Assembly: GCA_964619965.1 (NCBI GenBank)
Contig: CAZUGP010000055.1
Span: 1-63,992, forward strand
DNA length: 63,992 nt
Source of the DNA: an uncultured Acidobacteriota bacterium
GTDB taxonomy: Bacteria; Acidobacteriota; Polarisedimenticolia; Polarisedimenticolales; DASRJG01
Reading direction: 5' to 3'
The notes below the pieces were generated by a model. That model ran no database searches. It was not told the DNA's origin and saw nothing but the letters and a program-made list of their open reading frames with translations. Both the position numbers and the translations under genes were made by a program. Below, in pieces: positions 4,534-30,525 of this stretch; the stretch's first letter is position 1; each line of letters begins with the position of its first letter.

Positions 4534-4979
4534 CTCCCCGGCTTGCCCTCGGGTCCGGCGCGCTTCTCCAGGACCTCCGACGCGACCTGGATCGCATCCC
4601 GTCCCTGCTGGGCGATTCGTCTCACCGTCTCGTCGAATCCATCGACGGTCGACATGTTCGCGAACTTGATGAGCATGGGGAGGTTGACGCCCGTCACGAT
4701 GTCGACGCGCCCCGGCTCGAGGAGCGACAGGGCCACATTGGACGGCGTTCCACCGAACATGTCGGTCAGGATCAAGACCCGCCCATCGACGGCGACCTTG
4801 GCGATTCCTTCCTCGACGCGGCGCCTTGCGTCCACGACGTCGTCGTCCCAGCCGAGGGAGATCGACGAGAGCGTCGGCACCTCCCCGACGATGCGGCGCG
4901 CGGCCTTCTCGAGCTCGCCGGCGAGCTTTCCGTGTGTGACGACCAAGAGCCCGGGGGCGTTTTCCTTCATCCGCGTCAC
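4530..4979 (-). CDS. PTS EIIA component, mannose/fructose/sorbose family
   Basis: GLLVVTHGKLAGEL...VLILTDMFGGTPSN...TGVNLPML is an EIIA(Man) fold signature. A GTGA overlap with the rapZ stop marks one start; an alternative ATG lies at 4970. There is an ATGA overlap with the ptsH start. Confidence 0.8.
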   Translation of the reverse strand: MTRMKENAPGLLVVTHGKLAGELEKAARRIVGEVPTLSSISLGWDDDVVDARRRVEEGIAKVAVDGRVLILTDMFGGTPSNVALSLLEPGRVDIVTGVNLPMLIKFANMSTVDGFDETVRRIAQQGRDAIQVASEVLEKRAGPEGKPGR

Positions 4980-6855: not shown

Positions 6856-6896
6856 GACGGAAGCTCCGGGAGGCGGCTGGCGGCGCGTCCTTCTGG

Positions 6897-6905
6897 ATTC
6901 TAGCA
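6897..6905 (-). promoter_or_regulatory. Candidate extended -10 promoter element (TGCTAGAAT) for the hprK operon
   Basis: On the minus strand this reads TGCTAGAAT, about 40 nt upstream of the hprK ATG at 6855. I found no good -35 element. Confidence 0.3.
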
Positions 6906-6934
6906 GGCGCAACCCGCGGGCACGTGGGCTCGCC

Positions 6935-6964
6935 TTGACGCCTCTCTTACGCCTCTGGCATAGT
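6935..6964 (+). promoter_or_regulatory. Candidate sigma-70-type promoter for the type II GAPDH-like gene
   Basis: TTGACG, an 18-nt spacer, then TGgCATAGT. It ends about 28 nt upstream of the ATG at 6993, which is preceded by GGAGAA. Confidence 0.3.
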
Positions 6965-6992
6965 CCTCGCCCGCGATCCCCTGGAGAAACGC

Positions 6993-8066: not shown

Positions 8067-8069
8067 CTG

Positions 8070-9047
8070 TCAACTGCGAAGCTTCAAGATCGCTTCGGTC
8101 AGCTTGGGAAGCACTTCGAAGACGTCGCCGACGATGCCGTAGGTCGCCACCTTGAAGATTGGCGCTTCGGGGTCTTTGTTGATCGCGACGATCACCTTCG
8201 ACGAGGACATCCCCGCCAAATGTTGGATCGCGCCGGAAATGCCGCAGGCGACGTACAGGCTCGGCGAAACGACCTTTCCGGTCTGCCCCACTTGATGCGC
8301 ATGGGAGATCCAGCCCGCGTCGACCACCGCTCTCGAGGCGCCGACGGCGCCGCCCAAGGCTACGGCGAGATCGCGCACGATCGCGAAATGCTCCGGAGCC
8401 TTGAGGCCGCGTCCACCGCTCACGACGATCGAAGCCTCCGCGACGTCTAGCTCCTGGGCCGTCGGCTTCTCGATCCGCGTAACCGCCGCCCGTCGCGGGA
8501 CATCCGACGCGGCGCGCGGGACGACGTCGGCCGCTTTGCCGCCCGAAGTGACGGCCGGAAACACGTTGGGGCGCAGCGTGGCCATGGCAGGGCGGGCGTC
8601 GGCGACGGCGGCCCAGGCGTAGGCCTTCCCGGAATAGACCGGGCGCTTGCCGCGCAGCGCTCCACCGGCGGCTCGTTCGATCTCGACGACATCGGACAAC
8701 AGGCCGGTTCCGAGACGGGCAGAGGCGCGCGCGGCGACGTCGCGTCCGAAGCTCGTGCCGGCGGCTAGAATCGTGTCCGCGGGGGATTCCCTGCTTGCGT
8801 CGGCGAGCGTCGCCGAAAAGACCTCGGGGACGTAGAGATCGAGCGTCGCATCGGTGACGGCTATGAGGCGATCGGCCCCATGCGCCCCCGCCGGCTCCGC
8901 GCACGAAGCCGCACCCGAGCCGAATGCAATCGCGACGACGGCATCCCCCGTCGCATCGGCTAAACGTCTGGCGGTCGAAACCGCCTGGAGACTCGCCGCC
9001 TTCAGCTCGCCGCCGCGCCGCTCGAGAAGGACGAGAATCGCGCTCAT
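8070..9047 (-). CDS. etfA: Electron transfer flavoprotein subunit alpha
   Basis: [21 protein letters not shown]... and the C-terminal [37 protein letters not shown] are ETF-alpha FAD-binding signatures. Its ATG overlaps the etfB TGA by 1 nt. Confidence 0.9.
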
Positions 9048-9832
9048 CAGATCACCTTGGCTTCTTCGCGCAGCAGGCGGGCCAGAGTGCTCGCGGCCTC
9101 GCCCGCGTCCCCCGTCAAGATCCTCCCCGGGGGGCGTCCCGGCGGGAGCTCGAGCGACAGAGGAACGACGAGGGCGCCTGCGGCCGGCACGCCGAGCTCG
9201 GCAGTGCTCCGCACGACGAATGGTTTTTTCTTGGCCGCCATGATGCCTTTGAGCGAAGGGTAGCGAGGCGGGTGCTCGCCCTTGTCCCACGCGATCACCG
9301 CGGGGAGATCGCCCTGGACGATCTCAACCGCGCCCTCGATGCCGCGATGGGCGGTAAAGCGCCCGTCCGTCACGGCAAGCTCGAAGACGGCGCCGACGTG
9401 CGGACGGTCCAAAAGCTCCCCCAGCATCGGGCCGACCTGCCCCAGGTCGTCGCCGACGCCGATCTTTCCCGTGAACACCAGCTCGGGGGACTCCTCGCGG
9501 ATCGCGGCGGCGAGGATGCGCGCTCGCGTCAGCGCATCCGCCCTCGTCGACGACGCGTCCTGAACGTGGATGGCACGATCGGCTCCCATTGCGAGCGCCT
9601 GCCTCAGAGACGCTTGCGCACTTTCGTCGCCTAGCCCCAAGACGACGACCTCTTGCGCTCCTCCGCTTTCCTTGATCAGGAGCGCCTCTTCGAGGGCGAA
9701 TTCGTCGTAAGGGGAGACGACCATCTTGACGCCGCCAAGATCCGGGTTCTTCCCGTCCGGGCCGATCTTGATCTTCGCTTCCGTGTCGGGGACGTGCTTG
9801 ATGCAGACCAGGATTTTCATGGCGTCAGACAT
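9047..9832 (-). CDS. etfB: Electron transfer flavoprotein subunit beta
   Basis: MKILVCIKHVPDTEAKIKI...VVSPYDEFALEEAL is an ETF-beta signature. An alternative start, MKIL at 9820, would leave a 4-nt gap after the fabF stop instead of an 8-nt overlap. Confidence 0.88.
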   Translation of the reverse strand: MSDAMKILVCIKHVPDTEAKIKIGPDGKNPDLGGVKMVVSPYDEFALEEALLIKESGGAQEVVVLGLGDESAQASLRQALAMGADRAIHVQDASSTRADALTRARILAAAIREESPELVFTGKIGVGDDLGQVGPMLGELLDRPHVGAVFELAVTDGRFTAHRGIEGAVEIVQGDLPAVIAWDKGEHPPRYPSLKGIMAAKKKPFVVRSTAELGVPAAGALVVPLSLELPPGRPPGRILTGDAGEAASTLARLLREEAKVI

Positions 9833-11066
9833 CGTGCCGTGTCATCACAAGGCACGCATTCGTGCCGCCGAAGCCGAAGGAGTTGTTGAGCGCCGCCCGG
9901 ATCGGCATCCGGCGCGCGGTGTTGGGAACGCAGTCGAGATCACAGGAAGGGTCGGGCGTTACGTAGTTGATCGTCGGCGGGACGACGCCGTGGCGCACCG
10001 CAAGCGACGTGATCGCGCTCTCCAGCCCTCCGGCGGCGCCGAGAAGATGGCCGGTCATCGACTTCGTCGATGCGAACGCGAGCTTTCTCGCATGAGATCC
10101 GAACACGGTCTTCACGGCGGTCGTTTCGATCGAGTCACCGACCGGTGTGGATGTGCCGTGGGCGTTGATGTAGTCGACTTCCGGCCCGTCGATGCCCGCG
10201 TCCTTGAGCGCGCCGCGCATAGCGCGGGCCGCGCCGTCACCGTTCGGGGAGGGCGCGGAGATGTGGAACGCGTCGCCGGACAGACCGTATCCCGCGAGCT
10301 CCGCATAGATCGTCGCCCCGCGAGCCAACGCGTGCTCGCGCTCTTCCAGCACGAGGATTCCCGCGCCCTCGCCGATCACGAAACCGTCGCGATCGGCGTC
10401 GAACGGGCGAGACGCCTTCTCGGGCTCGTCGTTGCGCGTCGAGAGCGCCTTCATCGCGCAGAAGCCGCCCACGGCCAACGGCACGATGACCGCGTCGGTG
10501 CCGCCGGCGATCATCGCGTCGGCGTAATCCTCGCGAATGAGACGCATGGCTTCTCCGATGGCGTGGTTCCCGGTCGCGCAGGCGGTCGCGCAGGCGAGGT
10601 TGGGACCCTTGGCCCCGAAGAGGATCGAGACGTGCCCCGCGGCAAGATTCACGATCATTCCCGGGATGAAGAACGGCGAGATTCTCCGGGGCCCCTTGTC
10701 GAGATACGCCTTGTGGGTCTCTTCGAAGAGGGGCATGCCCCCGATGCCGGACCCGATGTACACGCCCACCCTCTCGCCGTTTTGCGCATCGATCTTCAGG
10801 CCGGAATCGGCAACGGCCTCATTCGACGCGGCGATCGCGAAGTGGATGAAGGTGTCCATCTTCTTGACGTCTTTACGGTCGATGTAGCTCTCGGGCACGA
10901 ATCCGCGAACCTCTCCCCCGATCCGGCACGTAAACGCGGATGCGTCGAACTTGGTGATCGGACCGATGCCGCTCTTCCCGGCAACGAGCGCCGACCAAGT
11001 GGACGGCGTGTCCAGGCCGAGCGGGGAGACGACCCCGACTCCGGTGATGACGACGCGGCGGCGCAC
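9825..11066 (-). CDS. fabF: Beta-ketoacyl-ACP synthase II
   Basis: RRVVITGVGVVSPLG, the active-site ACATGNHAIG, NAHGTSTP and NSFGFGGTNA are all present. The start codon is GTG. Confidence 0.93.
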   Translation of the reverse strand: MRRRVVITGVGVVSPLGLDTPSTWSALVAGKSGIGPITKFDASAFTCRIGGEVRGFVPESYIDRKDVKKMDTFIHFAIAASNEAVADSGLKIDAQNGERVGVYIGSGIGGMPLFEETHKAYLDKGPRRISPFFIPGMIVNLAAGHVSILFGAKGPNLACATACATGNHAIGEAMRLIREDYADAMIAGGTDAVIVPLAVGGFCAMKALSTRNDEPEKASRPFDADRDGFVIGEGAGILVLEEREHALARGATIYAELAGYGLSGDAFHISAPSPNGDGAARAMRGALKDAGIDGPEVDYINAHGTSTPVGDSIETTAVKTVFGSHARKLAFASTKSMTGHLLGAAGGLESAITSLAVRHGVVPPTINYVTPDPSCDLDCVPNTARRMPIRAALNNSFGFGGTNACLVMTRHDV

Positions 11067-11068
11067 GC

Positions 11069-11308
11069 TCAGGCCTTGGCGTGGGCCCCGATGTAATCGA
11101 TGGCCTGCTTCACGGTCGTGAGCTTCTCGGCGTCCTCGTCGCTGATCTCGAGCTTGAATTCTTCTTCGAGAGCCATGACGAGCTCGACGACATCGAGGGA
11201 ATCCGCCCCCAAATCGTCGACGAAGTGCGCTTCGGGCTTGACTTCTTTCTCGTCGACACCCAGCTGCTCCACGATGATGTTCTTGACCTTGTCTTCGATG
11301 GAAGCCAT
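11069..11308 (-). CDS. acpP: Acyl carrier protein
   Basis: The 79-aa protein [18 protein letters not shown]...[20 protein letters not shown] contains the DSL phosphopantetheine attachment site. Confidence 0.95.
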
Positions 11309-11373
11309 CGCGCGTTTCCTCCGTTTCAAATTGCGGCCGGCTTTCGCACCTGCGTCCCGCCCGCTGGGCCTAC

Positions 11374-12120
11374 TTACATGTACATTCCGCCGTTGATGTC
11401 CAACGTAATTCCCGTCACGAACGAGGCCTGCTCGCTGAGGAGGTAGGTCACCCCCGCAGCGACGTCTTCAGGACGACCGAGGCGCTTCATCGGAACCTGG
11501 GCGAGCAGCGCCTCGCGCTGCGCTTCCGTCAGCGTCTCCGTCATGTCGGTTTCGATGAAACCCGGGGCCACGCAATTCACCGTGATGTTACGCGACGCAA
11601 GCTCTCTAGCGAGCGATCTCGTGAACCCTTCCGTCCCGGCTTTGGCGGCGGCGTAATTGGATTGGCCCGGGTTTCCGCTGCGGGCGACAACCGACGTGAC
11701 GTTCACGATTCTTCCGTATCTCGCCTTGACCATGGAGGGGACCATCGAACGACAGATTCGGTAGATCCCCGAGAGATTGGTGCCGATCACCTGGTCCCAA
11801 TCCTCCTTTTTCATCCGCAACAGGAGGTTGTCCCGGGTGATTCCAGCATTGTTCACGAGGAGCGGGATTGTAGCATGCTCCTTCAGGACCTCCGCCATCG
11901 CGGAGTCGACCGACCGGTCGTCGGCGATGTCCAGGGCGAGCGCCTTCGCGGTCCCTCCCCCGTTCACGATCTCGTCGACCGTGCGGCCTGCGGCCTCCAG
12001 CGAGCGCGCGCCGGCGATCACCGTGGCGCCGCCTGCAGCCAACGCCAACGCGATCGCGCGACCGATTCCTCGCGAGGCGCCCGTGACGAGCGCCACCTTC
12101 CCGGCGAAGCTCCGGTCCAT
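11374..12120 (-). CDS. fabG: 3-oxoacyl-ACP reductase
   Basis: [21 protein letters not shown] and YAAAKAG (YxxxK) are SDR signatures, in the canonical fab position. I use the internal ATG (MDRSF); the upstream ORF extension overlaps fabD. Confidence 0.9.
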
Positions 12121-14942: not shown

Positions 14943-16433
14943 TCAGGAGACGGAATCGAGCTCTTTCATGGCGATTTCGTGGGTGGGCGCGAGCGTGAGG
15001 GCTTCCTCGAACTGCTTTTTAGCGCGGAGTTTCAGTCCCCGGCGCTTGTAGAAGCGGCCGAGCGCAACCCTGTATTCGGCGTTCCACTGGTCCAGGCGCG
15101 CGGCCTCGACGAAGTTCTGCTCGGCCATGCGCTGCCAGCGCGCGTCCGGATTCTTGGCCTGGCATTCGGCGAGGAGAAAGTAGAAGCGGGCGTCCTCCGG
15201 GCTGTAGCTGATGGCCAGCTTTCCGTATTGGATTGCGTTGTACGGGTCCCCTTCCCGCATGAATTTCTTGGCCTGGGCGAAGTAGGTATCGGCGAGCTTC
15301 GCGTTTTCTTCGATCGCGACTTTCGTCTTGGTCTTGTCCATCTCGACGCGAACAAGAAAATCGTCCATGACATGGGGTTCCTTGGCCGGGCGTCCGTCCT
15401 CGGGACGCCCCCCATGATCGCCGCCCCGTGCCTGCACGAGGGTCAAATAGGCCTCGACGAACCGACTCTCGATGACCGCCAGCTCGGAGCGGAGGCGCTC
15501 CCTGATCCGGGGCAAGATCCGATCCCGGCTGAACCTGTCCTTCGCCTCTTCGTAGGCGCGTTCGATCGTCTCGCGGCGCGCGCTCGAGGGAAGCCCCAGA
15601 ACCTCGTGCGGGTTCTTGTTCTTCAGCGAGGCGTACGTCTCGACGACCATCTTTTCCTGCAACCCCTCGAGCGCAACGGTGTCCGCGTGATCCCGCAGGA
15701 TCGCGGTGACCCGGAACGCCCCTTCTCCTACCGGCGGGTCGTAGCTGATCACACCCATCACGAGAAGGCCGTAGAGAAAGCGGCACGCCAGCCCCTCCTC
15801 GGCCGGGGGCAGGAGCGCGAGGACGTCTTGAAGGCGGCTCGGTCCATCGACGCGCGACAGGATGTAGCCGTGCGCCGGGGAGAGTGCCAAGCGTTCGAGC
15901 GGGACGGGAGCGGGCTGCCGCAGCTTCAGTCGGTTGTCGAGCCCCTTCATCGCCGACTGGATCGGCTCGAATCCCGTCATCGCGCCAATCCCTTTGAGTA
16001 TGACCTCGAAGGTCAGCAGGATGTCGCTCTCGAAGATCTCCTGGAGGAGCCAGCCCTCGCTGAATCGCGCTGTCCCTCCTTCCCACTGGAAGATGGACTG
16101 CACGACGTGCTCGACGATGTAGCGCACGGTGTGGGAAAGGGTCTCCTTTCCGATCAAACCGCGATTCACCAACGCCTGTGCCAAATCCTTCGGCTCGCTG
16201 ATGTTGCGTCTGGCCTCGGCGAGAGCCCCGGGCGAGATCTTGCCTTCGTTGACCAAGCGACGCCCGAGGTCTTCGTCGTCGGCACCGGATTCTGCGAACA
16301 GGATCATCCCGCGGTCGAAGTAGATTCGCTTCTCGACGTTCCCGTGACTGACATTGAGGACGCCCGAGCGCTCCCCGACGTAGAGGTCACGGAAGATCTC
16401 CGCAAGCGTCTGGCTGCTGAAGTTGGCCTGCAT
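14943..16433 (-). CDS. DUF4388-like N-terminal domain / degenerate J-like domain / TPR-repeat protein
   Basis: From the ATG at 16433, MQANFSSQTLAEIFRDLYVGERSGVLNVSHGNVEKRIYFDRGMILFA is DUF4388-like. The central NPHEVLGLPSSARRETIERAYEEAKDRFSRDR is J-domain-like, but HPD is replaced by SRD. The C-terminal part has TPR-like helices (YFAQAKKFMREGDPYNAIQYGKLAI...). Confidence 0.6.
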   Translation of the reverse strand: MQANFSSQTLAEIFRDLYVGERSGVLNVSHGNVEKRIYFDRGMILFAESGADDEDLGRRLVNEGKISPGALAEARRNISEPKDLAQALVNRGLIGKETLSHTVRYIVEHVVQSIFQWEGGTARFSEGWLLQEIFESDILLTFEVILKGIGAMTGFEPIQSAMKGLDNRLKLRQPAPVPLERLALSPAHGYILSRVDGPSRLQDVLALLPPAEEGLACRFLYGLLVMGVISYDPPVGEGAFRVTAILRDHADTVALEGLQEKMVVETYASLKNKNPHEVLGLPSSARRETIERAYEEAKDRFSRDRILPRIRERLRSELAVIESRFVEAYLTLVQARGGDHGGRPEDGRPAKEPHVMDDFLVRVEMDKTKTKVAIEENAKLADTYFAQAKKFMREGDPYNAIQYGKLAISYSPEDARFYFLLAECQAKNPDARWQRMAEQNFVEAARLDQWNAEYRVALGRFYKRRGLKLRAKKQFEEALTLAPTHEIAMKELDSVS

Positions 16434-16524
16434 CCCCGACCTACCCCCAGAACCTATACTGTCCACGGTCGACAATATAGATATCGCGGCCAGAAAGGAA
16501 AGTGGCGTGAAGCGGGGGGTCCGG

Positions 16525-17865
16525 ATGCGGGCGGTCGCCGTAGCCCTGACGTTCGCCGGCGCGCCATCCGCGCAAGCGGAACCGAACCGCGCCGCGTTCC
16601 TTGCCGCGCTGCACGACGGACGATTCGAAAGGGCCCGCGAGACTCTGCGGGAACGGGGGGTGCCCACGCGCCCCGACGACCTTTTCTTCGATGCTTTCAC
16701 GACGTACTGGCAGCTGGTATTCGACGACGAGAACCCGAGCCTCCGGGAGTATTTTGAAAAGCAGCTGAATACGGTGATCGCGGCAGCCGAGAAAACATCA
16801 AAAACGGGGGGTGGCGACGCGCTCTGGGCCGGGTCGAGCCACCTCCTGCTCGCCGAGCTCCGTGCGTCCCAGAGGCGCCCGCTGGCCGCCGCATTCGAGG
16901 CGAAGAAGGCCAAGCGCCTCCTGGAATCAACGTCGATCACCGGCGCGGACCGGACCGACGCGCTGTTCGGGATCGGCACCTACAACTACGTCGCCGACAC
17001 GGTCCCCTCGTACGTGAAGGGATTGCGGGCGCTTCTCTTCTTGCCGAAGGGCAATCGCGCGAAGGGTCTCTTACAGCTCGCCGAGACGGCCGCCGGGAGC
17101 CACTCCTTCGCCCTCGAAGCACGCACGCTGCTCGTGACGATCTACGCGCACCGTCACGAGCGGCTCTACGGTCTGGCCTTGGAAGAACGCGACCGCCTCC
17201 TCGGCGCGTTCCCCGAACCGATCGCGTCGTCCTACGCCGCCGCGCGCCTCGATCTGTCTCTCGGCCGAAACAAATCCGCGATCGACCTTTTGGAAAGGGC
17301 CCAGGAGCGAGCGCGAACCTTGGGTGATGTCGATCCCGTCGTCTGGCGCTGCATCGATCTGCTGCGCGCGCGCGCCGAGCTGGCCTCGCTACGTCCCGAC
17401 CGCGCCTTGGCGACGGCAGGGCGCGCCTTGGCGACCGGGCAAGGGCTGGGATCCGCGATGCGGAACGATTTCGAAGCCATTCGCGCCACGGCCACGCGCC
17501 TGGCGGAGGGAATCGCCTGGTCTCAGCTCGACGGGCCAAGTGCCCCTTCGCACGAAGCGGCCGCCTACGGCTCTTTGGCGACGGCGCATCCCGAGCGCCC
17601 GCTTCTCGCCCTCCTTGCAGGCGACGCCGAGCTGCGCGCAGGACGGGCGCGCGAGGCGCTTGACTGGTGTACCCGCGCTGCGGAGGCGGGGCTTCCGCCC
17701 GAACTACGGGCGGGATGCCAGCTCCGCCAAGGCCAGGCGCAGGATCTGCTCGGTCTGAGATCGCAAGCGCAGGAGATGTACAAGCGCGCCGCGGCGACTC
17801 CGGGGTTCGTGGCGAAGGACGCTGCTTTCTACTACCAACAGGCGCCCTACCGGCTCGCACCATGA
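16525..17865 (+). CDS. Secreted all-helical (TPR-like) hypothetical protein
   Basis: MRAVAVALTFAGAPSAQA is a signal peptide. The rest is Ala/Leu/Arg-rich helical repeats. An ATGA overlap links it to the next gene. Confidence 0.5.
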   Translation: MRAVAVALTFAGAPSAQAEPNRAAFLAALHDGRFERARETLRERGVPTRPDDLFFDAFTTYWQLVFDDENPSLREYFEKQLNTVIAAAEKTSKTGGGDALWAGSSHLLLAELRASQRRPLAAAFEAKKAKRLLESTSITGADRTDALFGIGTYNYVADTVPSYVKGLRALLFLPKGNRAKGLLQLAETAAGSHSFALEARTLLVTIYAHRHERLYGLALEERDRLLGAFPEPIASSYAAARLDLSLGRNKSAIDLLERAQERARTLGDVDPVVWRCIDLLRARAELASLRPDRALATAGRALATGQGLGSAMRNDFEAIRATATRLAEGIAWSQLDGPSAPSHEAAAYGSLATAHPERPLLALLAGDAELRAGRAREALDWCTRAAEAGLPPELRAGCQLRQGQAQDLLGLRSQAQEMYKRAAATPGFVAKDAAFYYQQAPYRLAP

Positions 17866-22278: not shown

Positions 22279-23270
22279 TCAGAAGACGGTCCCGATGGCG
22301 AAGATGAGCTCTCCCGCCGACTCGTCGGGCATGCGATCGAGCTTCCACCCGTACTCCACGCGAATCGGCCCGATCGGCGTCTCGAGGCGAAGCCCGAGGC
22401 CTGCCGAGGAGCGCAGGTTGGTCGGGTCGAAATCGCCCACGGTGGGGTAGACGTTGCCGGCGTCCAAGAACAGCTCCCCACGAAGACTGCGCCAGATCGG
22501 GAAATGCCACTCCTCGTTGAGCAGGAGGAGCGCCTCCCCTCCCCCCTTGAATCCGAAGACGTCGAGGCCTCCGACGGAGTCGGTGGCGAAGCCGCGCAGC
22601 GTGTTCGACCCACCGGCGAAGAAGCGCTCGGAGAGTGGGACGATCTGGGTGTCGGAGAAAGGCTGCTGCGCACCGACGCGAAGGAATGTGGCGAACCGGC
22701 TGCCGCGCTTCAACGTCACGGTCCACGATCCGCGCAGGAACAGCTTGACGAAGGAGGCCTCAGATCCGATCGGTTTCGAAAAGACGCTTCCCTCGATCGA
22801 GCCATACCCCCCGCGCGTCGAAACGAACGCGTCGTCACGCGTGTCACGAACGAGCCCGAGGCCGACATCGGCCAGCTGCAGAGCGGACACCTTGTCGTCG
22901 AACTTTTCTTCGAGCGCCGCCTGGAAGTCGCTGATGGCGGAGATCCTGACATCCTGGATGGTGTAACGGAGAAAACGGATCCAGCGCGGCTTCGGCCTCT
23001 GCTCGAGCCGGATCGACAAGGCGCGTCGCGACTCGGTGAACCAGTCTTGCGCCGTCTTCTCGAACAGGATCGAACCGAGCGCATCGATGGTGTTTCCGAA
23101 GACGCTTCGTCGCCGAAGGGTCAAGACTTCGCGGTCTTCCTTGCCGGTGACGCGGGCCTGGACGGCGATCGCGACACCGCGCCCGCCGAGGTTGGAATAG
23201 CCGAAGAGAAAGCTGGCCCGGGGACCGTCCTCCGAGTCGTATCCGACTCCGAAGCCCAGGGACAACGGCG
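22279..23270 (-). other. Omp85-family beta-barrel portion of the fusion ORF
   Basis: It has alternating-hydrophobicity strands, the conserved RGF/RGY-type loop-6 motif (NTLRGF), and a C-terminal aromatic residue (..GTVF). Confidence 0.7.
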
Positions 23271-26200
23271 GAGCCTCGTCGACTTTGACGGTGACCGTCT
23301 GGGCGGCGACGTCGTCACCGCCGAGCGGAACGTAGCTCAGCCTGACGCTGGAGAAGAGGCCGGTGCGGTAGAGCTGCTGCTGGCTCGTCAACAGCGACCG
23401 CTTCGCGACGAGATCACCGCGACCGAACGTCAGCGCCTTCGCGATCGTCCGCTGTTTGGTGACCCGGTTGCCCTCGATCGCGATCGTGCCGACCGTCTTT
23501 CGCTCGCCCGGGGCGATGTCGAACGCGATGTCCGCGGTCTCGCTCAAAAGCTCCACCCGGGATTCGACGTTGACCTCGGGATAGCCCAGGGCATCGAGTC
23601 GATCCTTGAGCAACTGCTCGGACTCCGCGAGGCGGCGCGGGGAGAACGTCTGACCGGGCGCAAGGGGCGTCGAGGCGCGCAACTCCGCCTCGGGCGCCGC
23701 CCCTCCGTCCGAGTACGTCACATCGCCGACCGTGAAGCGCGTTCCCTCGCGAATGGCGACGTCTACTTCCGCGGTTTCCCCCGTCGTGCCTAGAGCGACC
23801 TGAGGCTGCCCGATGAGAACCCGCGCGAAGCCTTCGTCGCGATAGAGGGCCCGCACCGAGGCCAGGTCGGCCGCCAGAACCGACGGGCGCAGCAGAGGCT
23901 TGCGAAGGGACTGGCTCTTCAGCGAGGTCATCTGCTTTTCGACTCGCGCAAGCGGGATCGATTGGACGCCCGTAAAGCGGAGCGCACGCAGCCGCACCGG
24001 CTTTCCGCGATCCACGAGAATGTGAATCGTCCGCCCGGAGGGTCGATCTTCGGGGTGCCACGTCACATCCGCTGCGTAGAAGCCGTCCTCCTGGAGTTGA
24101 TCGAGCAGCGCGCGCGTCGCCTCGTCCCAAAAGTCCGGCGTGTAAGGTGTCTCGCGCGCGAAGGCTTTGAGCGCCTTACGCATGGCGCGCTTCCCCTTGC
24201 CCCCGGCCATCACGAGATCGATCGTGACGCGCGGTCCCTGGACGACGCGGTAGACGATGCGATGCTCTCGTGGGGGGCCCTCGTCCAGGACCGCTTCGGC
24301 GCGGACGCTCGCCTGTGTAAACCCTTTGATCACGAGGGCCGCGCGAACGCGGTCCCCCCCCTGCAGCATGCGCCCACGGTCGAACGGATCGCCGGCGCGG
24401 ATCTTCGTGCTCTTGACGAGATCCGCCCTTGCGATGCCGTCGTCGGCCAGGACCTGGACGGAAGCGACCGTGCCGGTGACGCCGCCCGATGTGCGGGGCA
24501 GGCCGGACTCGCGCCCGGTAACCGCGGATCCGCCGAACTGGCGAGAGTACTGCAATTCTCCGCCCACGCCGGATTCCGTGTCGCTCTCGGCGACGAGGCG
24601 AATGCGTCGCGTGGTGTCCCACGCGATCTGGTACGTTTGCTTCTGCGCCGTTCCGATGTCCTGCGAGAACGCGATCTTGACCGTATCGCTCACCTGCTTG
24701 CCGACCGTGACGCGCGCGGTCGGATCGGACTCCCCCTTCAGCAGGAGCGGCGTGATCTCCAGCTGATCGATGCCGAGCGAATTCTGGATCTGCTTTCCGA
24801 ACGTCGAGCTCAAGAGGCCCGCGAAGTAGTACGCAGCCATGTCGCCCGGGAGTGCGGCAGCCGAGGCCGATCCGCTCAGCGAGTCGAGCGTTTTTCCGGT
24901 CACGAGCAGCGAGATGATGTCCTGCGACGCGAGCGGCGGCGTCGAGGTGATCTCGTAGTCGAACTTGTCCAGGGTGCCTTCGACGTGCAGGGAGATCTCG
25001 TACTCGGCAACGCGTGTCCGGCCGCGAAAGTCGACGTACGGATTGATGCGCGCCGGATCCGTCAAATCGAGCGTTCCGTACTCGATGCGGTAGTCCACGT
25101 CCCGGTACCGGACGGTGCCGCCCGGGATGAGAGCGAAGTGTCCCGTCACCTCCGGGCGCACCAGCTCGCCGCCGAGATGGATCTGTCCCTCCGCCTCGAC
25201 CTTCGCCACGTCGTTGCGGAGCCAGACGTTTCCCGGCGCCACGATGTCGACGTCGAGGAAGACGTTGCGCGGGAACGGCGATTCGGCTGCGGCATCGAAC
25301 TCGCGGTGCGCTCCGCCGAAGAGGCCGACGTCGAAGTCCTTGGAGTACAACCCGCGCACCAACTCGAGGCGGCCGGAGATCGTCGCGCGCTTCGGCGTCC
25401 CGTCGAGCGCGATGCGGCCCTCGTAGGTCCCCTTGAACCCCTCGGGGAACTTGACGACGACGTTCGCGCCGCCAAACTCGGCGTGCAGGGAGGCAGGGGT
25501 GATGCCTTTGAACTCGACGCGGCCGGTCGCGGTGATCTCGCCGCCACCCTGGAACGCGTGAAACGACGAGAGCGTGAGGGTCTGTCCCTGGAAGATCGCC
25601 TCGGCGTCGATCGACTCTAAGGACTGCGGGTAGCCGATGAGGCGCACTCGCCCGTCGCGCACGGCAACCCGCCCCTGCAAATCGGGTTGCTCGAGCCGAC
25701 CGCCGAGCGTTGCGTCGACTTCGACCGGACCCCCGCCGCGCATCTCGGACCAGAGCGACGAGACGACGGCCAGGTCGAGCGAGCCGCGGAGATACCCGGC
25801 GACCTCACCCCCGTCGATCGAACCGCTGCCGGCCAGCTCGACATGAGCGGCATCGCCCTCAAAGCGCGCCGGGCCGAGCACGAAGCGTCCGCTCTCTAAG
25901 CGGAGCGGGAAAGGCTCGGCGGCTTTTAGGACATGCGGTCCGAGGCGAACGGCGACCTGATCGAAAGCGCCGTTGATTTCCATCGCGCGAGGCTGGGTCA
26001 GATCCCCTTCCGCCTGAACTTGTCCCACCACGCGCAGGTCGAAGCTCTCGCCGAAGACTCCTCCCGCGCCGACGACTAAGTCCTCGAAATAGAGAACAGC
26101 CGAGAGCGGAAGCACGCGCGCGAAGCCGAGGAACGCATCGAACGTCCACGCCGCCTCCGGCATCGAGCGGACGGCGAGCTCCAAGCCCCGCGGCGAGATC

Positions 26201-28416
26201 GAGCCCGTCCCTTGGAGGTCCCCGAGCCGAATCTCGCGCAAGCCGTTTCGCCCGGTGTCTAAGAGCAGGTCGCTCGCGACGATCCGTAGCAGTCCCGCGG
26301 GGCCTTCGGGCGTGACCGTCATCGACCCCTGCGTCCGGATCGTCCCCGTCGCGGTGAGGCCGGCCTCGGCCAGTGTGCGGTTTGATCCAAGGTCGAGGAG
26401 AGCCGATACGAGCTCGACCTCCGCTTCGCTTTTCACGAGGTCGTAGATCACCCGTCCGCGCGCTTCGAGCCCGTGACCCCGCGCGACGATCCCGTCGAGA
26501 ATGACCCGATCGCCCTCGACGCGGACCGCCCCTTCGATCGTGTCGACGATCTCGTAACCGACGATCACCTTCTGTGCGGTGACGCGGCCCTGCGCGGCCA
26601 ACAGGCCTCCCTCGCGGGAGCCATGGAGGTCGAGGTCGACGCGTCCGTCGATCGGTGCGGCGACGCCGGCCTTGGCGAGGAGCCTCCCCACCACCACACC
26701 CCGCGCGGCAACGTCGAGCTCGTCGATCGCGCCGTTGCGCGCGTCGAAGCGAGCGCTTCCCACAACCGACGATCCTTCCGACTCGAGCTCGACGTGGCGC
26801 AGCGCGACCATCGTCTCAGAAACCGCGAGGTCGCAGCGCGCCGAGGTGAACGGCTCACCGGCGTAGGACCCGTCGACCAGATCGAGCGCTAAATCGAGCG
26901 TCGTGGACCGCCCCGAGGTTCGCACCGCCGCGCGCAAGCTCCCGGCCCCTTCCAGAGGCTCGACCGCGAACCGGTTGCGTGCGACGCCTAACGCATCCAG
27001 GAACGTAAGCGCGGCGAGCTGCGTCGTCCGGGCGGAACGCGTCGTCCCCTCGATTGCGAGCGTCATGGCCGGCGGCGTCGACTTGAGCTCGGCCGCAAGC
27101 GCCAAGCGCAACGACGCCTCCGCCAGCTGCAGTTTCTCCGTCTCGACGCGCACCCGGCCGGACTCGAAGATCAGGCGGCCGCGTCCACGCGCCTGAACGG
27201 CTTGGGCTATGCCTGCCGCGCGGGGCACGGCGTCGAACGTCCCGCCGCCGGTCCACGTCGCAGGCCGGCCCGGGTCTCCCGCAATCGCAAAGGTCACGTC
27301 GGCCGAGCTCGCTATCGGGAGCGCTTTTCCGGCCAATGCGATGAGGCGGGAGAGATCGGCGCCTTTCCCCGCGAGGTCGGTGACGAGCCCCAACGGCTGG
27401 CCGAACGTGAGGCCGACCGTGCCGGTGAATGCGCCGGCGTAGGCGTGCGCGTCAAGGCCGCCGACATCGAGGCGTCCCGGGCGGATCGTGAGCTCGCCGC
27501 GTGCCGTGTCCGTGGCGATCGGGCCGATGGACAGGCCCGTCGTTTTCGCCTGCATGGTGACGCGGATCGGCACGCCCCCCGTGTAGACGATCTGGAGGGG
27601 GCCTTCGACCTGCCCGGACAGCGGGAGATTGCCCGCCAAATACGGCGAGAGCGCCGCGAGGTCTGCGTCCAGCCGGCCTTGCGCGGTGAACGAGGCGCCC
27701 ACGCCCCAGGAGACGTTGCCTGCCAGCTCCCCACGAGCGCCGGGCCCCTCGCCGGTGGCGGCGAAGATCTCGAGCCGCCCTCCTCCGAGGCGCAAGCCTC
27801 CACGAACGTCGGCCGGCCACGGCTGGCCGAAAAGCGGCGCCTCGACCGTGGCGCTGGCACGCACCTCCCCGACCAGAAGCCGGCGCGACGTCGACCAGTC
27901 GCCGTGAAAGTCCATCGAGCGCGTCGCCACGCGCAGACGCTTTTGTCCATCGAGGTACTCGGCGGTCGCATCCTCGACGACGAGGCGGTCGATCTGGATC
28001 GCGACCGCCCCCCCGCCCTGCCTCTCCTTCGGTCTCCAAGCGTCGATCCATTCGCGGCTGCACGAAAAGGTCGCGCCTCGCGCCAGCACTTCGGTGATGT
28101 GAATGTCCCCGCCCGCGATGCCCCCCAGTCCGGACCAGGCGAGCTTGACGCGTCCTTCCGCCATGGTGGCGGTCAGCGGTGCCGCCCCTTCGGCGGGAAT
28201 CGAGATCGCGACATCCCCGATCGTGGCGGCGAGGGATGTCCAGTCGACATCCATGCGCCCGATCCGCACCGACCCGCCGAGCGACGTCGCCAGCCCCGTC
28301 TCGAGGCGTCTTTGGAGCCAGGAGGTGGAGCGCTCGTCCGCCTGCGTCTGCGCGCGTGCTCCTCCCGAAGCCAGCGCGAAGGCGAACGCCGCAACCAGCA
28401 CTAGTCTGCGGCTCAC
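22279..28416 (-). CDS. Fusion protein of about 2045 aa: TamB/AsmA-like translocation module, POTRA repeats and an Omp85 (BamA/TamA-type) outer-membrane beta-barrel
   Basis: A single open frame in the ORF track spans 22279-29016. I place the start at the GTG at 28416 (VSRRLVLVAAFAFALASGGARAQ, a signal or anchor sequence), which overlaps the rlmI TGA. The N-terminal 1290 aa or so consists of repetitive beta-rich TamB-like sequence ending in a DUF490-type tail (...VGKQVSDTVKIAFSQDIG..QTYQIAWDTTRRIRLVAESDTESGVGGELQYSRQF). The C-terminal 750 aa or so has POTRA-like units and a barrel (GFGVGYDSEDG...RFFAGGSNTLRGF...LDAGNV...GLGLRLETPIGPIRVEYGW...FAIGTVF) with a terminal Phe. Confidence 0.8.
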   Translation of the reverse strand: MSRRLVLVAAFAFALASGGARAQTQADERSTSWLQRRLETGLATSLGGSVRIGRMDVDWTSLAATIGDVAISIPAEGAAPLTATMAEGRVKLAWSGLGGIAGGDIHITEVLARGATFSCSREWIDAWRPKERQGGGAVAIQIDRLVVEDATAEYLDGQKRLRVATRSMDFHGDWSTSRRLLVGEVRASATVEAPLFGQPWPADVRGGLRLGGGRLEIFAATGEGPGARGELAGNVSWGVGASFTAQGRLDADLAALSPYLAGNLPLSGQVEGPLQIVYTGGVPIRVTMQAKTTGLSIGPIATDTARGELTIRPGRLDVGGLDAHAYAGAFTGTVGLTFGQPLGLVTDLAGKGADLSRLIALAGKALPIASSADVTFAIAGDPGRPATWTGGGTFDAVPRAAGIAQAVQARGRGRLIFESGRVRVETEKLQLAEASLRLALAAELKSTPPAMTLAIEGTTRSARTTQLAALTFLDALGVARNRFAVEPLEGAGSLRAAVRTSGRSTTLDLALDLVDGSYAGEPFTSARCDLAVSETMVALRHVELESEGSSVVGSARFDARNGAIDELDVAARGVVVGRLLAKAGVAAPIDGRVDLDLHGSREGGLLAAQGRVTAQKVIVGYEIVDTIEGAVRVEGDRVILDGIVARGHGLEARGRVIYDLVKSEAEVELVSALLDLGSNRTLAEAGLTATGTIRTQGSMTVTPEGPAGLLRIVASDLLLDTGRNGLREIRLGDLQGTGSISPRGLELAVRSMPEAAWTFDAFLGFARVLPLSAVLYFEDLVVGAGGVFGESFDLRVVGQVQAEGDLTQPRAMEINGAFDQVAVRLGPHVLKAAEPFPLRLESGRFVLGPARFEGDAAHVELAGSGSIDGGEVAGYLRGSLDLAVVSSLWSEMRGGGPVEVDATLGGRLEQPDLQGRVAVRDGRVRLIGYPQSLESIDAEAIFQGQTLTLSSFHAFQGGGEITATGRVEFKGITPASLHAEFGGANVVVKFPEGFKGTYEGRIALDGTPKRATISGRLELVRGLYSKDFDVGLFGGAHREFDAAAESPFPRNVFLDVDIVAPGNVWLRNDVAKVEAEGQIHLGGELVRPEVTGHFALIPGGTVRYRDVDYRIEYGTLDLTDPARINPYVDFRGRTRVAEYEISLHVEGTLDKFDYEITSTPPLASQDIISLLVTGKTLDSLSGSASAAALPGDMAAYYFAGLLSSTFGKQIQNSLGIDQLEITPLLLKGESDPTARVTVGKQVSDTVKIAFSQDIGTAQKQTYQIAWDTTRRIRLVAESDTESGVGGELQYSRQFGGSAVTGRESGLPRTSGGVTGTVASVQVLADDGIARADLVKSTKIRAGDPFDRGRMLQGGDRVRAALVIKGFTQASVRAEAVLDEGPPREHRIVYRVVQGPRVTIDLVMAGGKGKRAMRKALKAFARETPYTPDFWDEATRALLDQLQEDGFYAADVTWHPEDRPSGRTIHILVDRGKPVRLRALRFTGVQSIPLARVEKQMTSLKSQSLRKPLLRPSVLAADLASVRALYRDEGFARVLIGQPQVALGTTGETAEVDVAIREGTRFTVGDVTYSDGGAAPEAELRASTPLAPGQTFSPRRLAESEQLLKDRLDALGYPEVNVESRVELLSETADIAFDIAPGERKTVGTIAIEGNRVTKQRTIAKALTFGRGDLVAKRSLLTSQQQLYRTGLFSSVRLSYVPLGGDDVAAQTVTVKVDEAPPLSLGFGVGYDSEDGPRASFLFGYSNLGGRGVAIAVQARVTGKEDREVLTLRRRSVFGNTIDALGSILFEKTAQDWFTESRRALSIRLEQRPKPRWIRFLRYTIQDVRISAISDFQAALEEKFDDKVSALQLADVGLGLVRDTRDDAFVSTRGGYGSIEGSVFSKPIGSEASFVKLFLRGSWTVTLKRGSRFATFLRVGAQQPFSDTQIVPLSERFFAGGSNTLRGFATDSVGGLDVFGFKGGGEALLLLNEEWHFPIWRSLRGELFLDAGNVYPTVGDFDPTNLRSSAGLGLRLETPIGPIRVEYGWKLDRMPDESAGELIFAIGTVF
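23271..24465 (-). other. About five POTRA-like repeats of the fusion ORF
   Basis: The repeats are about 75-85 aa each and each ends in a beta-strand of the type G.R..I/V: (1) VQVLADDG..VVQGPRVTI; (2) ..ILVDRGKPVRL; (3) RALRFTGVQS..IREGTRFTV; (4) GDVTYSDG..IAPGERKTV; (5) GTIAIEGNRVTK..VKVDEAPP. The count is by eye only. Confidence 0.5.
24535..28416 (-). other. TamB/AsmA-like portion of the fusion ORF (includes the DUF490-like C-terminal region)
   Basis: I placed the domain boundary by locating the codons for ELQYSRQF at 24535-24558. It is followed by the linker GGSAVTGRESGLPRTSGGVTGT. Confidence 0.65.
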
Positions 28417-29603
28417 GGAGACCCTGACGCGTCCCGCAGCACGAAGCACTTGAGGTAGCGGCCCTCGGGAAAGGCGAGCCGGACGGGATGGTCTTGCGCT
28501 TGCCCGCGGCGTTGTTCGACGACCACGTCGCGGCCCGCGTCCGCGGCGGCTTCGCGCAGGAGACCCTCGAACGAGGGCTCGTCCAGGTTGTACGAGCAGG
28601 AGGAGGTGAAAAGGACGCCGCCTTTGGCCAAAAGCCGGAGCGCGCGCAGGTTGATCTCCTTGTATCCGCGGCGAGCGGCCGCCACGTCGCCGCGGCTCTT
28701 CGCGAACGCCGGGGGGTCCAGCACGACGAGATCGAAGCGTTCCCCGCGACGGTCCCGCTCGCGCAAATCCAGGAACGCGTTCGCCTCGACGAACGTCAGG
28801 TTGGTCGCGCCGTTCCGCTCCGCGTTCGCGCGCCCGCGGGACAGAGCCTCCGTCGATGCGTCGACGACGACGACTTCCGTCGCGTGGTGCGCCGCGTGCA
28901 AAGCGAATGAAGCGTGATACGAGAAGGCGTCCAGGACCCGCCCGCGGCCGTAAGCGCCGCAGGCTACGCGGTTTTCGCGTTGATCGAGAAACGCCCCCGT
29001 CTTTTGGCCGCGCCACGGATCGGCGGCGTAGCGAACGCCTCCCTCGTCGACGACGACTTCGTCGGGCGTCGTCCCCGCGATCTGTCGCACCTCACGCGTC
29101 AGCCCTTCGAGTGTCCTCACGGACGGGTCGTTCCTGGCGAGAACCGAATCCACGACAACGCGTTCGCGGACCCTGGCCACGACCTGGTCCACGATACGCT
29201 CGGTACCCGCCGTCAGGACCTGAATCACGAGATGGGTTCCGTAAATGTCGGCGACGAGCCCGGGCACGCCGTCCGCCTCGCCAAAGATGAGACGCCTCGC
29301 CGTCCATCGGGCGATCTCGACACCGCGGCGCTCCACGGCGTCGTCGACTCGCGCCGCCCAAAACGCGGCATCAGGGACCACGTCCTCGCGCGATACTATC
29401 CGCAGCGCGATTTTCGAGCGGGCCGACCAGAACGCGATGCCCAGAACCGCTCCCGCGCCGTCTCGGACCCGAACGAGGTCTCCGTGCGCGGCGGCACCGG
29501 ACGCCGTGACGTCGTCCGCGAAGATCCAGGGATGGCGAGCGTCGATTCGCCGCTTGGCCCGCAGTCGTACGGTGACATCGGGGAGCCGCCCGGGGGGGGA
29601 CAT
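28413..29603 (-). CDS. rlmI: Class I SAM-dependent rRNA methyltransferase, RlmI/RlmK-like (PUA-like N-terminal domain plus methyltransferase)
   Basis: KRRIDARHPWIFADDV.. is PUA/EVE-like. ..QKTGAFLDQRENR..VLDAFSY...DLVVLDPPAFAKS...YKEINLRALRLLAKGGVLFTSSCS is the RlmI family pattern. Confidence 0.75.
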   Translation of the reverse strand: MSPPGRLPDVTVRLRAKRRIDARHPWIFADDVTASGAAAHGDLVRVRDGAGAVLGIAFWSARSKIALRIVSREDVVPDAAFWAARVDDAVERRGVEIARWTARRLIFGEADGVPGLVADIYGTHLVIQVLTAGTERIVDQVVARVRERVVVDSVLARNDPSVRTLEGLTREVRQIAGTTPDEVVVDEGGVRYAADPWRGQKTGAFLDQRENRVACGAYGRGRVLDAFSYHASFALHAAHHATEVVVVDASTEALSRGRANAERNGATNLTFVEANAFLDLRERDRRGERFDLVVLDPPAFAKSRGDVAAARRGYKEINLRALRLLAKGGVLFTSSCSYNLDEPSFEGLLREAAADAGRDVVVEQRRGQAQDHPVRLAFPEGRYLKCFVLRDASGSP

Positions 29604-29609
29604 CTCAGC

Positions 29610-29640
29610 GAGTAGGAGGCGTCTTCAAGACGCCCTACTC
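29610..29640 (-). promoter_or_regulatory. Interrupted 12-bp hairpin spanning the dksA-like stop codon, just upstream of the rlmI start
   Basis: GAGTAG-ga-GGCGTC-ttcaa-GACGCC-CTACTC. The TAG stop at 29635-29637 lies inside the 3' arm. The rlmI ATG is at 29603. There is no U-tract. Confidence 0.4.
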
Positions 29641-30447
29641 TTCCGAGTCGTCGCCGTCCACGACGAGCGGGTCGTCGTCGAGAACCTCGTCCTCCACCTC
29701 CACCTCGGACTCCTCGTCGGGGGGCGGCAGGTCCTCGGGCTCGTCCGCAGGCTCCTCGTCGTCGCCGACGGCGAAGGGAAACTGCGGCAGCAGCCCTTTT
29801 TCCTCGAGCTCCTGGCAGCGGACGCAATGCCTGGCCCAAGGTTGGACCTCGAGCCGCTTGAGGTTGATGTCCTCGCCGCACTGCTGGCAGTAACCGTATT
29901 CGCCGCGGTCGATCCGGTTCAGCGCTTCCTCGACGAGCAGGAGGTGTTTCCGTTCCATCTCGGTCAACGAAAGCAGGAACTCGCGTGCGTAGGAGTTCAC
30001 CGCATAGTCGACATAGTCTTCGGTTCCGTTGTCGAGCTCGGCCTGGGAGTCCCCCTTGCTGATCGCATAGGCGCGCATCAAGTCCTGGCGCTTCTTCAGC
30101 AGCAGCTCGCGAAAGTGTGCCCGCTCCTTGCGTCTCGCCGCGATGGAGGCCGGTTTCGGAACGCGCCTGGCCTGTGGCTTGGGCTTGGGGGCGACCGGCG
30201 GCGCCTTCAGTACGGCCTTCAAGACGCGCGCGGCCTTGAACGTGGTGGCGGGAGCCTTGCCGGGTCCCTTGGCACCCGCCTTCGCGGTCGGCCGGACGGC
30301 GGTGAGCTTCTTCGCGATCGGCTTCGCGGCAGCCGCCTTCTTCTTCACGCCGGCAACCTTGGCGGGGACCGCCTTCGCGGGCTTTTTAGCCGCGCGCTTC
30401 ATCGTCTTGACGGCGGGAGCTTTGGCCTTCGAGGACTTCGCTTTCAT
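29635..30447 (-). CDS. dksA: DksA/TraR-family C4 zinc-finger regulator with an Ala/Lys/Pro-rich basic N-terminal extension and an acidic C-terminal tail
   Basis: The core reads ..NGTEDYVDYAVNSY.. (a DxxDxA coiled-coil tip motif) and CQQCGEDI..(17 aa)..CVRCQ (a C4 finger). The N-terminal 105 aa or so reads MKAKSSKAKAPAVKTMKRAAKKPAKAVPAKVAGVKKKAAAAKPIAKK.... The C-terminal 45 aa or so reads DDEEPADEPEDLPPPDEESEVEVEDEVLDDD.... Confidence 0.75.
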   Translation of the reverse strand: MKAKSSKAKAPAVKTMKRAAKKPAKAVPAKVAGVKKKAAAAKPIAKKLTAVRPTAKAGAKGPGKAPATTFKAARVLKAVLKAPPVAPKPKPQARRVPKPASIAARRKERAHFRELLLKKRQDLMRAYAISKGDSQAELDNGTEDYVDYAVNSYAREFLLSLTEMERKHLLLVEEALNRIDRGEYGYCQQCGEDINLKRLEVQPWARHCVRCQELEEKGLLPQFPFAVGDDEEPADEPEDLPPPDEESEVEVEDEVLDDDPLVVDGDDSEE

Positions 30448-30496
30448 CGGGAACCCTCGAACACGCGGGCGCAATCCGCGCTCGCGAAAGCGCGGC

Positions 30497-30525
30497 ACTA
30501 TACCGTCCTGCCCAACGAGCGTCAA
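30497..30525 (-). promoter_or_regulatory. Near-consensus sigma-70 promoter upstream of the dksA-like gene
   Basis: The minus strand reads TTGACG, a 17-nt spacer, then TATAGT. It lies about 50 nt upstream of the ATG at 30447. A short GC hairpin (CCGCGC-tttcgcga-GCGCGG) falls in the predicted leader. Confidence 0.55.

Follow-up and report, generated by a model that had tools for sequence, protein, structure and literature searches.

In a stretch of 63,992 nucleotides from an uncultured Acidobacteriota bacterium (contig CAZUGP010000055.1 of assembly GCA_964619965.1; the whole stretch is called "the window" below), a single gene of 2045 codons (window positions 22279..28416, minus strand) codes for a TamB module and a POTRA/Omp85 barrel in one polypeptide chain. 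Our analysis demonstrates that this one-chain gene is genuine and that it is common to many uncultured relatives. We consider it likely that it is a conserved gene for a single-chain equivalent to the TAM (translocation and assembly module), which forms its hybrid barrel in cis and serves lipid transport. The components, their partnership and the hybrid barrel were already known; the covalent one-chain form appears to be the new part.

In the list of open reading frames (ORFs) the gene is part of a longer, single uninterrupted frame (22279..29016, minus strand). The first ~200 codons of this listed ORF (28417-29016, minus strand) are rich in arginine and overlap the upstream methyltransferase gene in another frame. 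This extension is an out-of-frame read-through of the methyltransferase gene in a genome of 66% GC; it lies outside the protein and is a trap for gene callers. We take the GTG at 28416 as the realistic start of the fused gene, because it overlaps the TGA of the upstream gene (GTGA) and because the translation from it, beginning MSRRLVLVAAFAFALASGGARAQTQ.., is in register with the N-termini of the homologues. The N-terminus obtained in this way (MSRRLVLVAAFAFALASGGARA followed by QTQ) also agrees with them. From the N-terminus of the protein onward, the features of the gene are as follows (aa, amino acids; pLDDT, predicted local distance difference test).

28351..28416, minus strand: putative N-terminal export signal including the GTG start, aa 1-22, MSRRLVLVAAFAFALASGGARA (homologue N-termini, GTGA overlap).
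25555..28350, minus strand: first ~930 aa of the module that resembles TamB (aa 23-954), predicted as an amphipathic helix and then a long beta-groove of the AsmA-like or bridge-like lipid-transfer fold (AlphaFold2, Foldseek, Pfam matches of homologues).
24535..25554, minus strand: TamB/DUF490 domain, aa 955-1294, which takes in a helical segment that is conserved (..SQDIISLLVTGKT..) as well as the final five or six strands (Pfam PF04357, profile search, AlphaFold2).
24535..24564, minus strand: internal strand resembling a beta-signal, aa 1285-1294, GGELQYSRQF; its homologue in stand-alone TamB is the strand at the C-terminus (alignment, covariation).
24472..24534, minus strand: flexible linker, aa 1295-1315, GGSAVTGRESGLPRTSGGVTG (pLDDT <50, variable in the family).
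23275..24471, minus strand: five POTRA domains, aa ~1316-1714 (Pfam, AlphaFold2, TIGR03303, Foldseek).
22282..23265, minus strand: 16-strand Omp85 barrel, aa ~1718-2045, with the L6 motif ..LRGF.. and the C-terminal end ..FAIGTVF (Pfam, AlphaFold2, sequence matches in the PDB).
22279..22281, minus strand: stop codon of the fused gene (ORF list and translation).

Both modules are recognized by sequence models. The Pfam TamB/DUF490 model (PF04357) matches aa 955-1294 with an E-value of 7e-43, over profile positions 7-381 of 381, and the Omp85 model matches aa 1742-2045 (E 3e-41). POTRA domains are also detected; five stretches appear if the C-terminal 750 aa are scanned alone at a lax threshold. 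Between aa 23 and 954 the window protein is without any Pfam match, and homologues show matches to TamB_N, DUF748, AsmA and YhdP in this N-terminal stretch. A phmmer search of the N-terminal 1295 aa against the PDB gave no match, and E. coli TamB was reached only with a family profile: that of aa 945-1297, built from 11 fused proteins, matches the E. coli TamB chains 23sp_B (E 7e-18) and 9xdc_B (E 7e-16).

The predicted structures agree with this anatomy, in which the signal sequence is followed by about 1270 aa of beta-groove with the DUF490 domain at its end. An AlphaFold2 model of aa 900-2045, computed with 48 family sequences (mean pLDDT 77.9, predicted template modelling score (pTM) 0.58), shows beta-groove strands up to aa ~1160, a low-confidence helical segment in the conserved ..SQDIISLLVTGKT.. 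region, and then five or six strands ending at F1294. The linker is disordered (pLDDT <50) and is followed by five POTRAs of beta-alpha-alpha-beta-beta type and 16 barrel strands. In Foldseek, the PDB entries that match this model best are full-length BamA chains from E. coli (E 4e-47), aligned over ~800 columns. The second AlphaFold2 model covers aa 1-950; it reaches a pLDDT of 85.7 and consists of a helix at residues 4-18 (low confidence), a helix at 33-46 and ~60 strands over aa 49-950. Foldseek matches it to long beta-sheets that bind lipids and are generic in kind, among them ApoB100 and LPD-3, a homologue of BLTP1 (9cap_A), at a probability of 0.99 and with low TM-scores; TamB chains are absent from the top 50. 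These matches weakly back a lipid-transfer fold for the N-terminal model.

An earlier note, made from the letters of the sequence alone, had described this architecture, and each of its items holds. It had claimed a single frame of about 2045 codons (which we start at GTG 28416), about 1290 aa of TamB-like sequence with a DUF490 tail ending ..ELQYSRQF (now seen in PF04357 and the AlphaFold2 groove), about five POTRAs, a BamA-like count on which the Pfam stretches and AlphaFold2 agree, and an Omp85 barrel ending in Phe, which is backed by the Pfam match, the 16 modelled strands and the end ..FAIGTVF. The linker, given as about 22 aa rich in Gly, Ser and Thr, is 21 aa long (57% Gly/Ser/Thr), directly after the ..ELQYSRQF end of the TamB module. 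A single detail is refined: the N-terminal hydrophobic signal or anchor is present and resembles a cleavable signal peptide more than a membrane anchor.

The one-chain architecture is conserved far beyond the window. A full-length search yielded 186 homologues at E<=1e-10, nearly all of them 1900-2350 aa long, with the Pfam domains TamB, POTRA and Omp85 united in a single polypeptide. They were drawn from JGI, ENA, NCBI and Logan assemblies, at identities from 76% down to ~23%, and more than 100 protein clusters carry the fused architecture intact and in frame. The two closest genome matches in a whole-protein contig scan are Acidobacteriota metagenome-assembled genomes (73% and 63% identity), and the few family members with a name are all Acidobacteriota (Candidatus Polarisedimenticolia, Polarisedimenticolaceae, Bryobacteraceae, Vicinamibacterales).

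In an alignment of 48 sequences all members are in frame over the junction and show the same succession: a conserved strand with Phe as its last residue, then Gly in most cases, a linker that varies, and POTRA1. Across 185 fusions the TamB module ends in Phe in 136 and the next residue is Gly in 117; in 166 the internal beta-signal strand closes with F, L, Y or W. Linker lengths range from 6 to 38 aa (median 20); the linker is rich in G, A, P and R, is not hydrophobic and never resembles a signal peptide. The C-terminal module brings along neither a signal peptide nor a hydrophobic stretch and therefore can be exported only within the fusion.

A survey of fused versus split forms, which the earlier note had proposed, was performed with the Omp85 half alone against 1.84 billion representatives at 50% identity. 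The best 150 clusters comprise 81 fusions of full length, 14 truncated ones and 31 proteins that stand alone (~900-1000 aa); a further 21 are short fragments. True split pairs exist as well, in L008 and L009 (see below). Two close relatives (P0042, P0126) were considered as natural splits and rejected as frameshift fragments: they share the neighbourhood, and their breaks lie at arbitrary, non-domain positions, one inside POTRA1 and the other with a gap in mid-gene (mid-TamB), in ENA metagenome assemblies. In these two assemblies the orthologue is called as two pieces (L006, 8001-10352 and 3717-6428; L007, 8001-14224), and mutL is also split in L006. The pieces are probably indel errors that mimic a split tamB/omp85 pair in protein databases.

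The genuinely unfused relatives suggest how the gene may have originated. The nearest stand-alone Omp85 proteins (~30% identity, ~930-950 aa) are encoded directly downstream of tamB. In L008 (JGI 3300057031, 4949-11637) tamB (1302 aa) overlaps omp85 (932 aa) by 19 bp, and in L009 (GCA_041629955.1, 5016-11847) 1 bp lies between the genes; both pairs come from GC-rich uncultured bacteria and lie downstream of ftsJ/tlyA and NAD kinase genes. The L008 TamB, which has a long N-terminal hydrophobic helix, ends ..ARWESRF* at the very point where the fusion linker begins. The L008 Omp85 starts with its own signal peptide ahead of POTRA1, and the fusion linker occupies the position of this signal peptide. 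The fusion probably goes back to neighbouring tamB and omp85 genes, in this order: the stop codon of tamB was lost, and a hydrophilic linker took the place of the signal peptide of the barrel. Since the closest unfused relatives are already ordered tamB->omp85, no gene rearrangement is needed. The domain order, which the earlier note had called reversed, is indeed reversed with respect to the proteobacterial tamA-tamB, but not with respect to these relatives.

The stand-alone partners carry ~165-250 extra N-terminal residues, about two more POTRAs as judged by length. This extra length recalls the duplicated acidobacterial BamA copies with seven POTRAs, from which TamA has been proposed to derive (Heinz 2015, PMC4494059). 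The same survey reports Acidobacteria that have a canonical BamA plus a second, TamA-like BamA copy in an operon with TamB, in the order BamA-TamB, and the order TamB-BamA in Spirochaetes (PMC4494059). In a rough neighbour-joining tree of the Omp85 modules the fusions are not monophyletic; the tree is too coarse to tell one from several fusion or fission events.

The E. coli complex offers a template for how a single chain may work. There, TamB is an inner-membrane-anchored "beta-taco" lipid bridge, and cryo-electron microscopy shows the last strand of DUF490, a beta-signal-like Phi-x-Phi-x-Phi-x-F, hydrogen-bonded to strand beta1 of TamA in a stable functional hybrid barrel (PMC12800296, PMC13119328). 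POTRA1 touches TamB residues ~892-994, far from the TamB C-terminus (PMC12800296, PMC13119328). The earlier note had read the fusion as covalent fixation of a known contact between the DUF490 end and POTRA1. This reading is only partly right. The fusion is fully compatible with the known complex, though not for the reason given: a contact between the DUF490 end and POTRA1 is not part of it, as the last strand pairs with TamA beta1. With the E. coli strand on beta1 and the POTRA1 contact far upstream, the linker would have to start at the barrel's periplasmic rim and lead to POTRA1.

We propose the following scenario. Sec would export the polypeptide through its N-terminal signal. The first ~1290 residues would form a hydrophobic beta-groove of TamB type, long enough to cross the periplasm, and may carry glycerophospholipids from the inner to the outer membrane in analogy to E. 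coli TamB, YhdP and YdbH. The C-terminal 730 residues would form a BamA-like barrel of 16 strands with five POTRAs in the outer membrane, presumably inserted by the cell's machinery for beta-barrel assembly (BAM). The last strand of the TamB module, now internal, would pair in cis with beta1 and build a hybrid barrel such as TamA and TamB form in trans. The 21-residue linker would exit this strand on the periplasmic side and loop back to POTRA1; because a strand that replaces beta16 beside beta1 ends on the periplasmic side, the linker would not need to cross the membrane. As some members have linkers of only 6-15 residues, POTRA1 would have to lie close to the barrel seam.

Covariation within the family bears on the pairing in cis. 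Mutual information (MI) with average product correction (APC) was calculated over the 185 fusions (effective number of sequences 162), and partners in antiparallel ladders were scored. In the calibration, 12 of the 16 barrel strands had a true neighbour as their best partner. Out of ~1050 possible ladders, beta1 (aa 1718-1727) scores best with the internal beta-signal strand (z 4.1), better than with beta2 or beta16, and beta16 has this strand as its second partner (z 3.4). This pattern matches the prediction of a cis hybrid barrel and is suggestive of it. A stretch of POTRA1 (aa ~1350-1354, about 24355-24369, minus strand) also stands out: no other partner scores higher with the internal beta-signal strand (z 4.1), and for beta15 it ranks second (z 4.7). 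These scores are a hint that POTRA1 lies near the barrel seam, but phylogenetic noise would explain them equally well.

The inner-membrane end of the protein takes two forms in the family. In the clade of the window (>=55% identity, 41 clusters, P0001-P0041) the N-termini have RR, an Ala-rich hydrophobic core of 12-16 residues, often GG, an A-x-A motif and then Q-T/S-P-P. Distant fused homologues (~25% identity, P0049-P0117, including Bryobacteraceae and Vicinamibacterales) have a ~20-aa transmembrane helix and a conserved HTPPxRR, and their N-terminus reads as the usual TamB signal anchor. The Q/H-T-P-P motifs of the two forms appear homologous. The N-terminus of the window clade may, with perhaps an even chance, be a signal peptide cleaved by signal peptidase I; the sequences suggest that an ancestral anchor was turned into a cleavable signal in this clade. 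If it is cleaved, the protein might reach the inner membrane through the amphipathic N-terminal helix (..SWLQRRLETGLA..) or a partner. In the anchored clade, the Sec signal anchor would stay in the inner membrane and BAM would insert the barrel. The earlier note had asked how one chain is inserted into both membranes: the question fits the distant fusions with their anchor-type helix, and it may not apply to the window clade, whose N-terminus looks cleavable.

A stronger version of this scenario is possible, though we regard it as rather doubtful. The TamB-Omp85 hybrid barrel would be permanent and obligatorily 1:1, needing no free C-terminal carboxylate; in addition, with the former inner-membrane anchor now cleavable in the window clade of Polarisedimenticolia-like Acidobacteriota, the mature machine of ~2020 residues would be held only in the outer membrane and would reach the inner membrane by a free chorein-like end, as in eukaryotic bridge-like lipid-transfer proteins, possibly via a partner.

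Several points weigh against a single-chain TAM equivalent with a hybrid barrel in cis. The covariation measure is a crude MI-APC on related sequences and its signal is moderate (z ~4). The pTM of the AlphaFold2 model is only 0.58, which leaves the inter-domain arrangement uncertain. A cleaved N-terminus would mean that there is no inner-membrane anchor and that the inner-membrane end of the bridge is unexplained. Finally, the barrel lies narrowly above the cut-off of the NCBI BamA equivalog (303 vs 297 bits), which is compatible with a general insertase role.

This last point leads to the question whether the Omp85 half is a BamA, a TamA or of a third kind. Judged from sequence models and from its fold, it is BamA-like and not a proteobacterial TamA. 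The NCBIfam BamA equivalog TIGR03303 is passed marginally, at 303.0 bits against a cut-off of 297.15, from POTRA2 onward (aa 1409-2045). The models for TamA (NF047950; 130 bits, cut-off 625) and TamL (NF052279; 71.5 bits, cut-off 400) stay far under their cut-offs, as does the TamB equivalog NF047952 (42 bits, cut-off 825), a model of the proteobacterial autotransporter-assembly TamB. In the PDB, sequence matches of the Omp85 half put BamA (1e-25) above TamA (5e-20). The Omp85 module has no separate N-terminus, in which the lipobox of TamL is looked for, and its POTRA count is five where TamA has three. That the fused protein is the only BamA of the organism, a general insertase with a covalent TamB and thus the extreme form of the BamA-TamB partnership found in Borrelia and other single-Omp85 lineages, is a reading with arguments of its own: beside the TIGR03303 score, the POTRA count and the fold matches, the 64-kb window contains no second Omp85 (or TamB), and in Borrelia TamB binds the POTRAs of BamA (PMC5582053, PMC11361582). 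We nevertheless hold it to be improbable. The nearest stand-alone barrels are tamB-linked Omp85s with ~165-250 extra residues, like the second acidobacterial copy that exists beside a canonical BamA (PMC4494059), and by these relatives and their linkage the Omp85 half belongs with TamB-dedicated Omp85s. The L008 and L009 Omp85s also pass TIGR03303, and over the fused homologues its scores range from 154 to 352 bits, with several distant ones well under the cut-off (154-244 bits). The genomic context consists of a methyltransferase and mutL and is not of the bamA-skp-lpxD type, a beta1 permanently filled by the protein's own TamB strand would restrict substrate access, and a stretch of 64 kb covers little of a genome, so that the lack of a second copy there says little. 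We favour a TAM equivalent with a separate BamA elsewhere in the genome.

Similarly improbable is a scenario in which the fusion is a precursor whose linker is cut after export, e.g. after the conserved F-G(G), to give a two-chain complex of TamB and Omp85. The linker is disordered, variable and exposed, the Phe-Gly at the end of the TamB module is conserved, and a cut at F-G would restore a free C-terminal Phe as on stand-alone TamB. However, Pfam and NCBIfam scans found no protease motif or autoprocessing domain, nothing is conserved in the 6-38 aa of linker beyond the first Gly, and a tight turn would equally account for a conserved Gly behind a membrane strand; the data do not require cleavage. 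An artefact, i.e. adjacent genes joined by a sequencing or assembly error or a pseudogene frame, has next to no chance of being the explanation. Frameshifted or fragmented versions of the gene do exist in some assemblies (L006, L007), but fragments break inside POTRA1 or in mid-TamB instead of at the domain boundary, and they come from error-prone assemblies. The fusion is intact and in frame in more than 100 clusters from four sources, down to 25% identity, its C-terminal half lacks a signal peptide of its own, and both halves model confidently. The conserved in-frame junction effectively refutes the artefact reading, and the earlier note was right to discount a collapsed stop codon or frameshift.

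The neighbourhood of the single-chain gene is conserved too. Directly upstream lies:

28413..29603, minus strand: RlmI-like S-adenosylmethionine (SAM) methyltransferase gene (PUA and Methyltrans_SAM; Pfam matches).

Because its stop codon overlaps the start of the fused gene, the two are probably co-transcribed and translationally coupled. The methyltransferase gene is genomic context and not a part of the machine. It also adjoins the orthologous gene in L001, L006 and L007, and mutL lies downstream of the fused gene in the window. The whole order PPDK / DksA-like zinc-finger / methyltransferase / fused gene / mutL / SLT transglycosylase / PatA_N-DUF4388 protein recurs in L001, L006 and L007. 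The coupling of an envelope-biogenesis gene to an rRNA methyltransferase is a conserved yet unexplained arrangement. Two of the neighbours can be described further. A 296-aa ORF (29638-30525, minus strand) has a DksA/TraR C4 zinc finger confined to aa 208-243 and is about twice the usual length of DksA; proteins of 270-278 aa are called at its place in L006 and L007. A 678-aa protein (14946-16979, minus strand) combines DUF4388/PatA_N at the N-terminus with tetratricopeptide repeats at the C-terminus; a PatA_N protein is kept in the corresponding neighbourhood of L006 and L007.

No description of a natural TamB-Omp85 fusion was found in the literature, where most subscription journals lay outside the search and an earlier mention is possible. 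A term search of the two main surveys of TAM evolution (PMC4104836, PMC4494059), a 2024 TAM review, a TamL study and a 2026 preprint on TAM cryo-electron microscopy (PMC13119328) revealed none, and searches for explicit phrases gave nothing either; Heinz 2015 (PMC4494059) uses neither "fusion" nor "fused" anywhere in its text. Sequence databases contain the single-chain form in abundance, labelled generically, e.g. as "TamB domain-containing protein" or "YaeT".

To a specialist the fusion will not be mechanistically surprising, and it is a useful natural experiment on the coupling of TamB and Omp85. The way in which the two engage is still being worked out, as is the question whether the TAM acts chiefly as a conduit for lipids or as an insertase, and the first hybrid-barrel structures date from 2026. 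A widespread fusion is independent evolutionary ("Rosetta stone") evidence for a stable 1:1 pairing of TamB and Omp85. Judged from its sequence, it would show that a beta-signal strand can work internally, with its end facing the periplasm, and the shortest linkers (6-15 residues) constrain the position of POTRA1. It also suggests the design of single-chain TamB-linker-TamA constructs for structural and genetic work, and it bears on the history of TamA, given the proposed origin of TamA mentioned above. If the apparent loss of the anchor in one clade is real, it would mean that a lipid bridge of bacteria need not be integrated into the inner membrane in order to work.

A single bacterial polypeptide that reaches from the inner to the outer membrane has a precedent in VirB10 of type IV secretion systems, which is unrelated in fold and function and whose outer-membrane part is helical and not a beta-barrel. 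Among the systems with related components, the E. coli TamA-TamB complex (PDB 9XDC, 23SP; PMC12800296, PMC13119328) shares the DUF490 domain, the long beta-groove, the beta-signal-like last strand ending in Phe and an Omp85 protein with POTRAs and a 16-strand barrel, and the covariation found here is consistent with the same pairing of last strand and beta1. It differs in that our protein is one polypeptide and not two, with an internal beta-signal strand and TamB preceding Omp85, five POTRAs instead of three, a barrel scored as BamA-like, and a cleavable-looking N-terminus instead of a signal anchor. The split operons L008 and L009 share the module order, an Omp85 of ~30% identity and a TamB ending ..RF where the linker starts, whereas they consist of two genes and their Omp85 has its own signal peptide and ~165-250 extra residues. 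The second BamA of Acidobacteria (Heinz 2015, PMC4494059) belongs to the same phylum and is likewise a BamA-like Omp85 dedicated to TamB, but it is encoded by a separate gene in the order BamA-TamB. In Borrelia burgdorferi (PMC5582053, PMC11361582) TamB partners a five-POTRA protein of BamA type and binds several of the POTRAs with its C-terminal domain; the proteins are separate there, and this BamA is the only and canonical copy of the cell. Plastid TIC236-TOC75 (PMC6683743) is a eukaryotic system of separate chains with an assigned role in protein import, and it shares with the single-chain protein a TamB-like bridge that is coupled to an Omp85 barrel over the intermembrane space.

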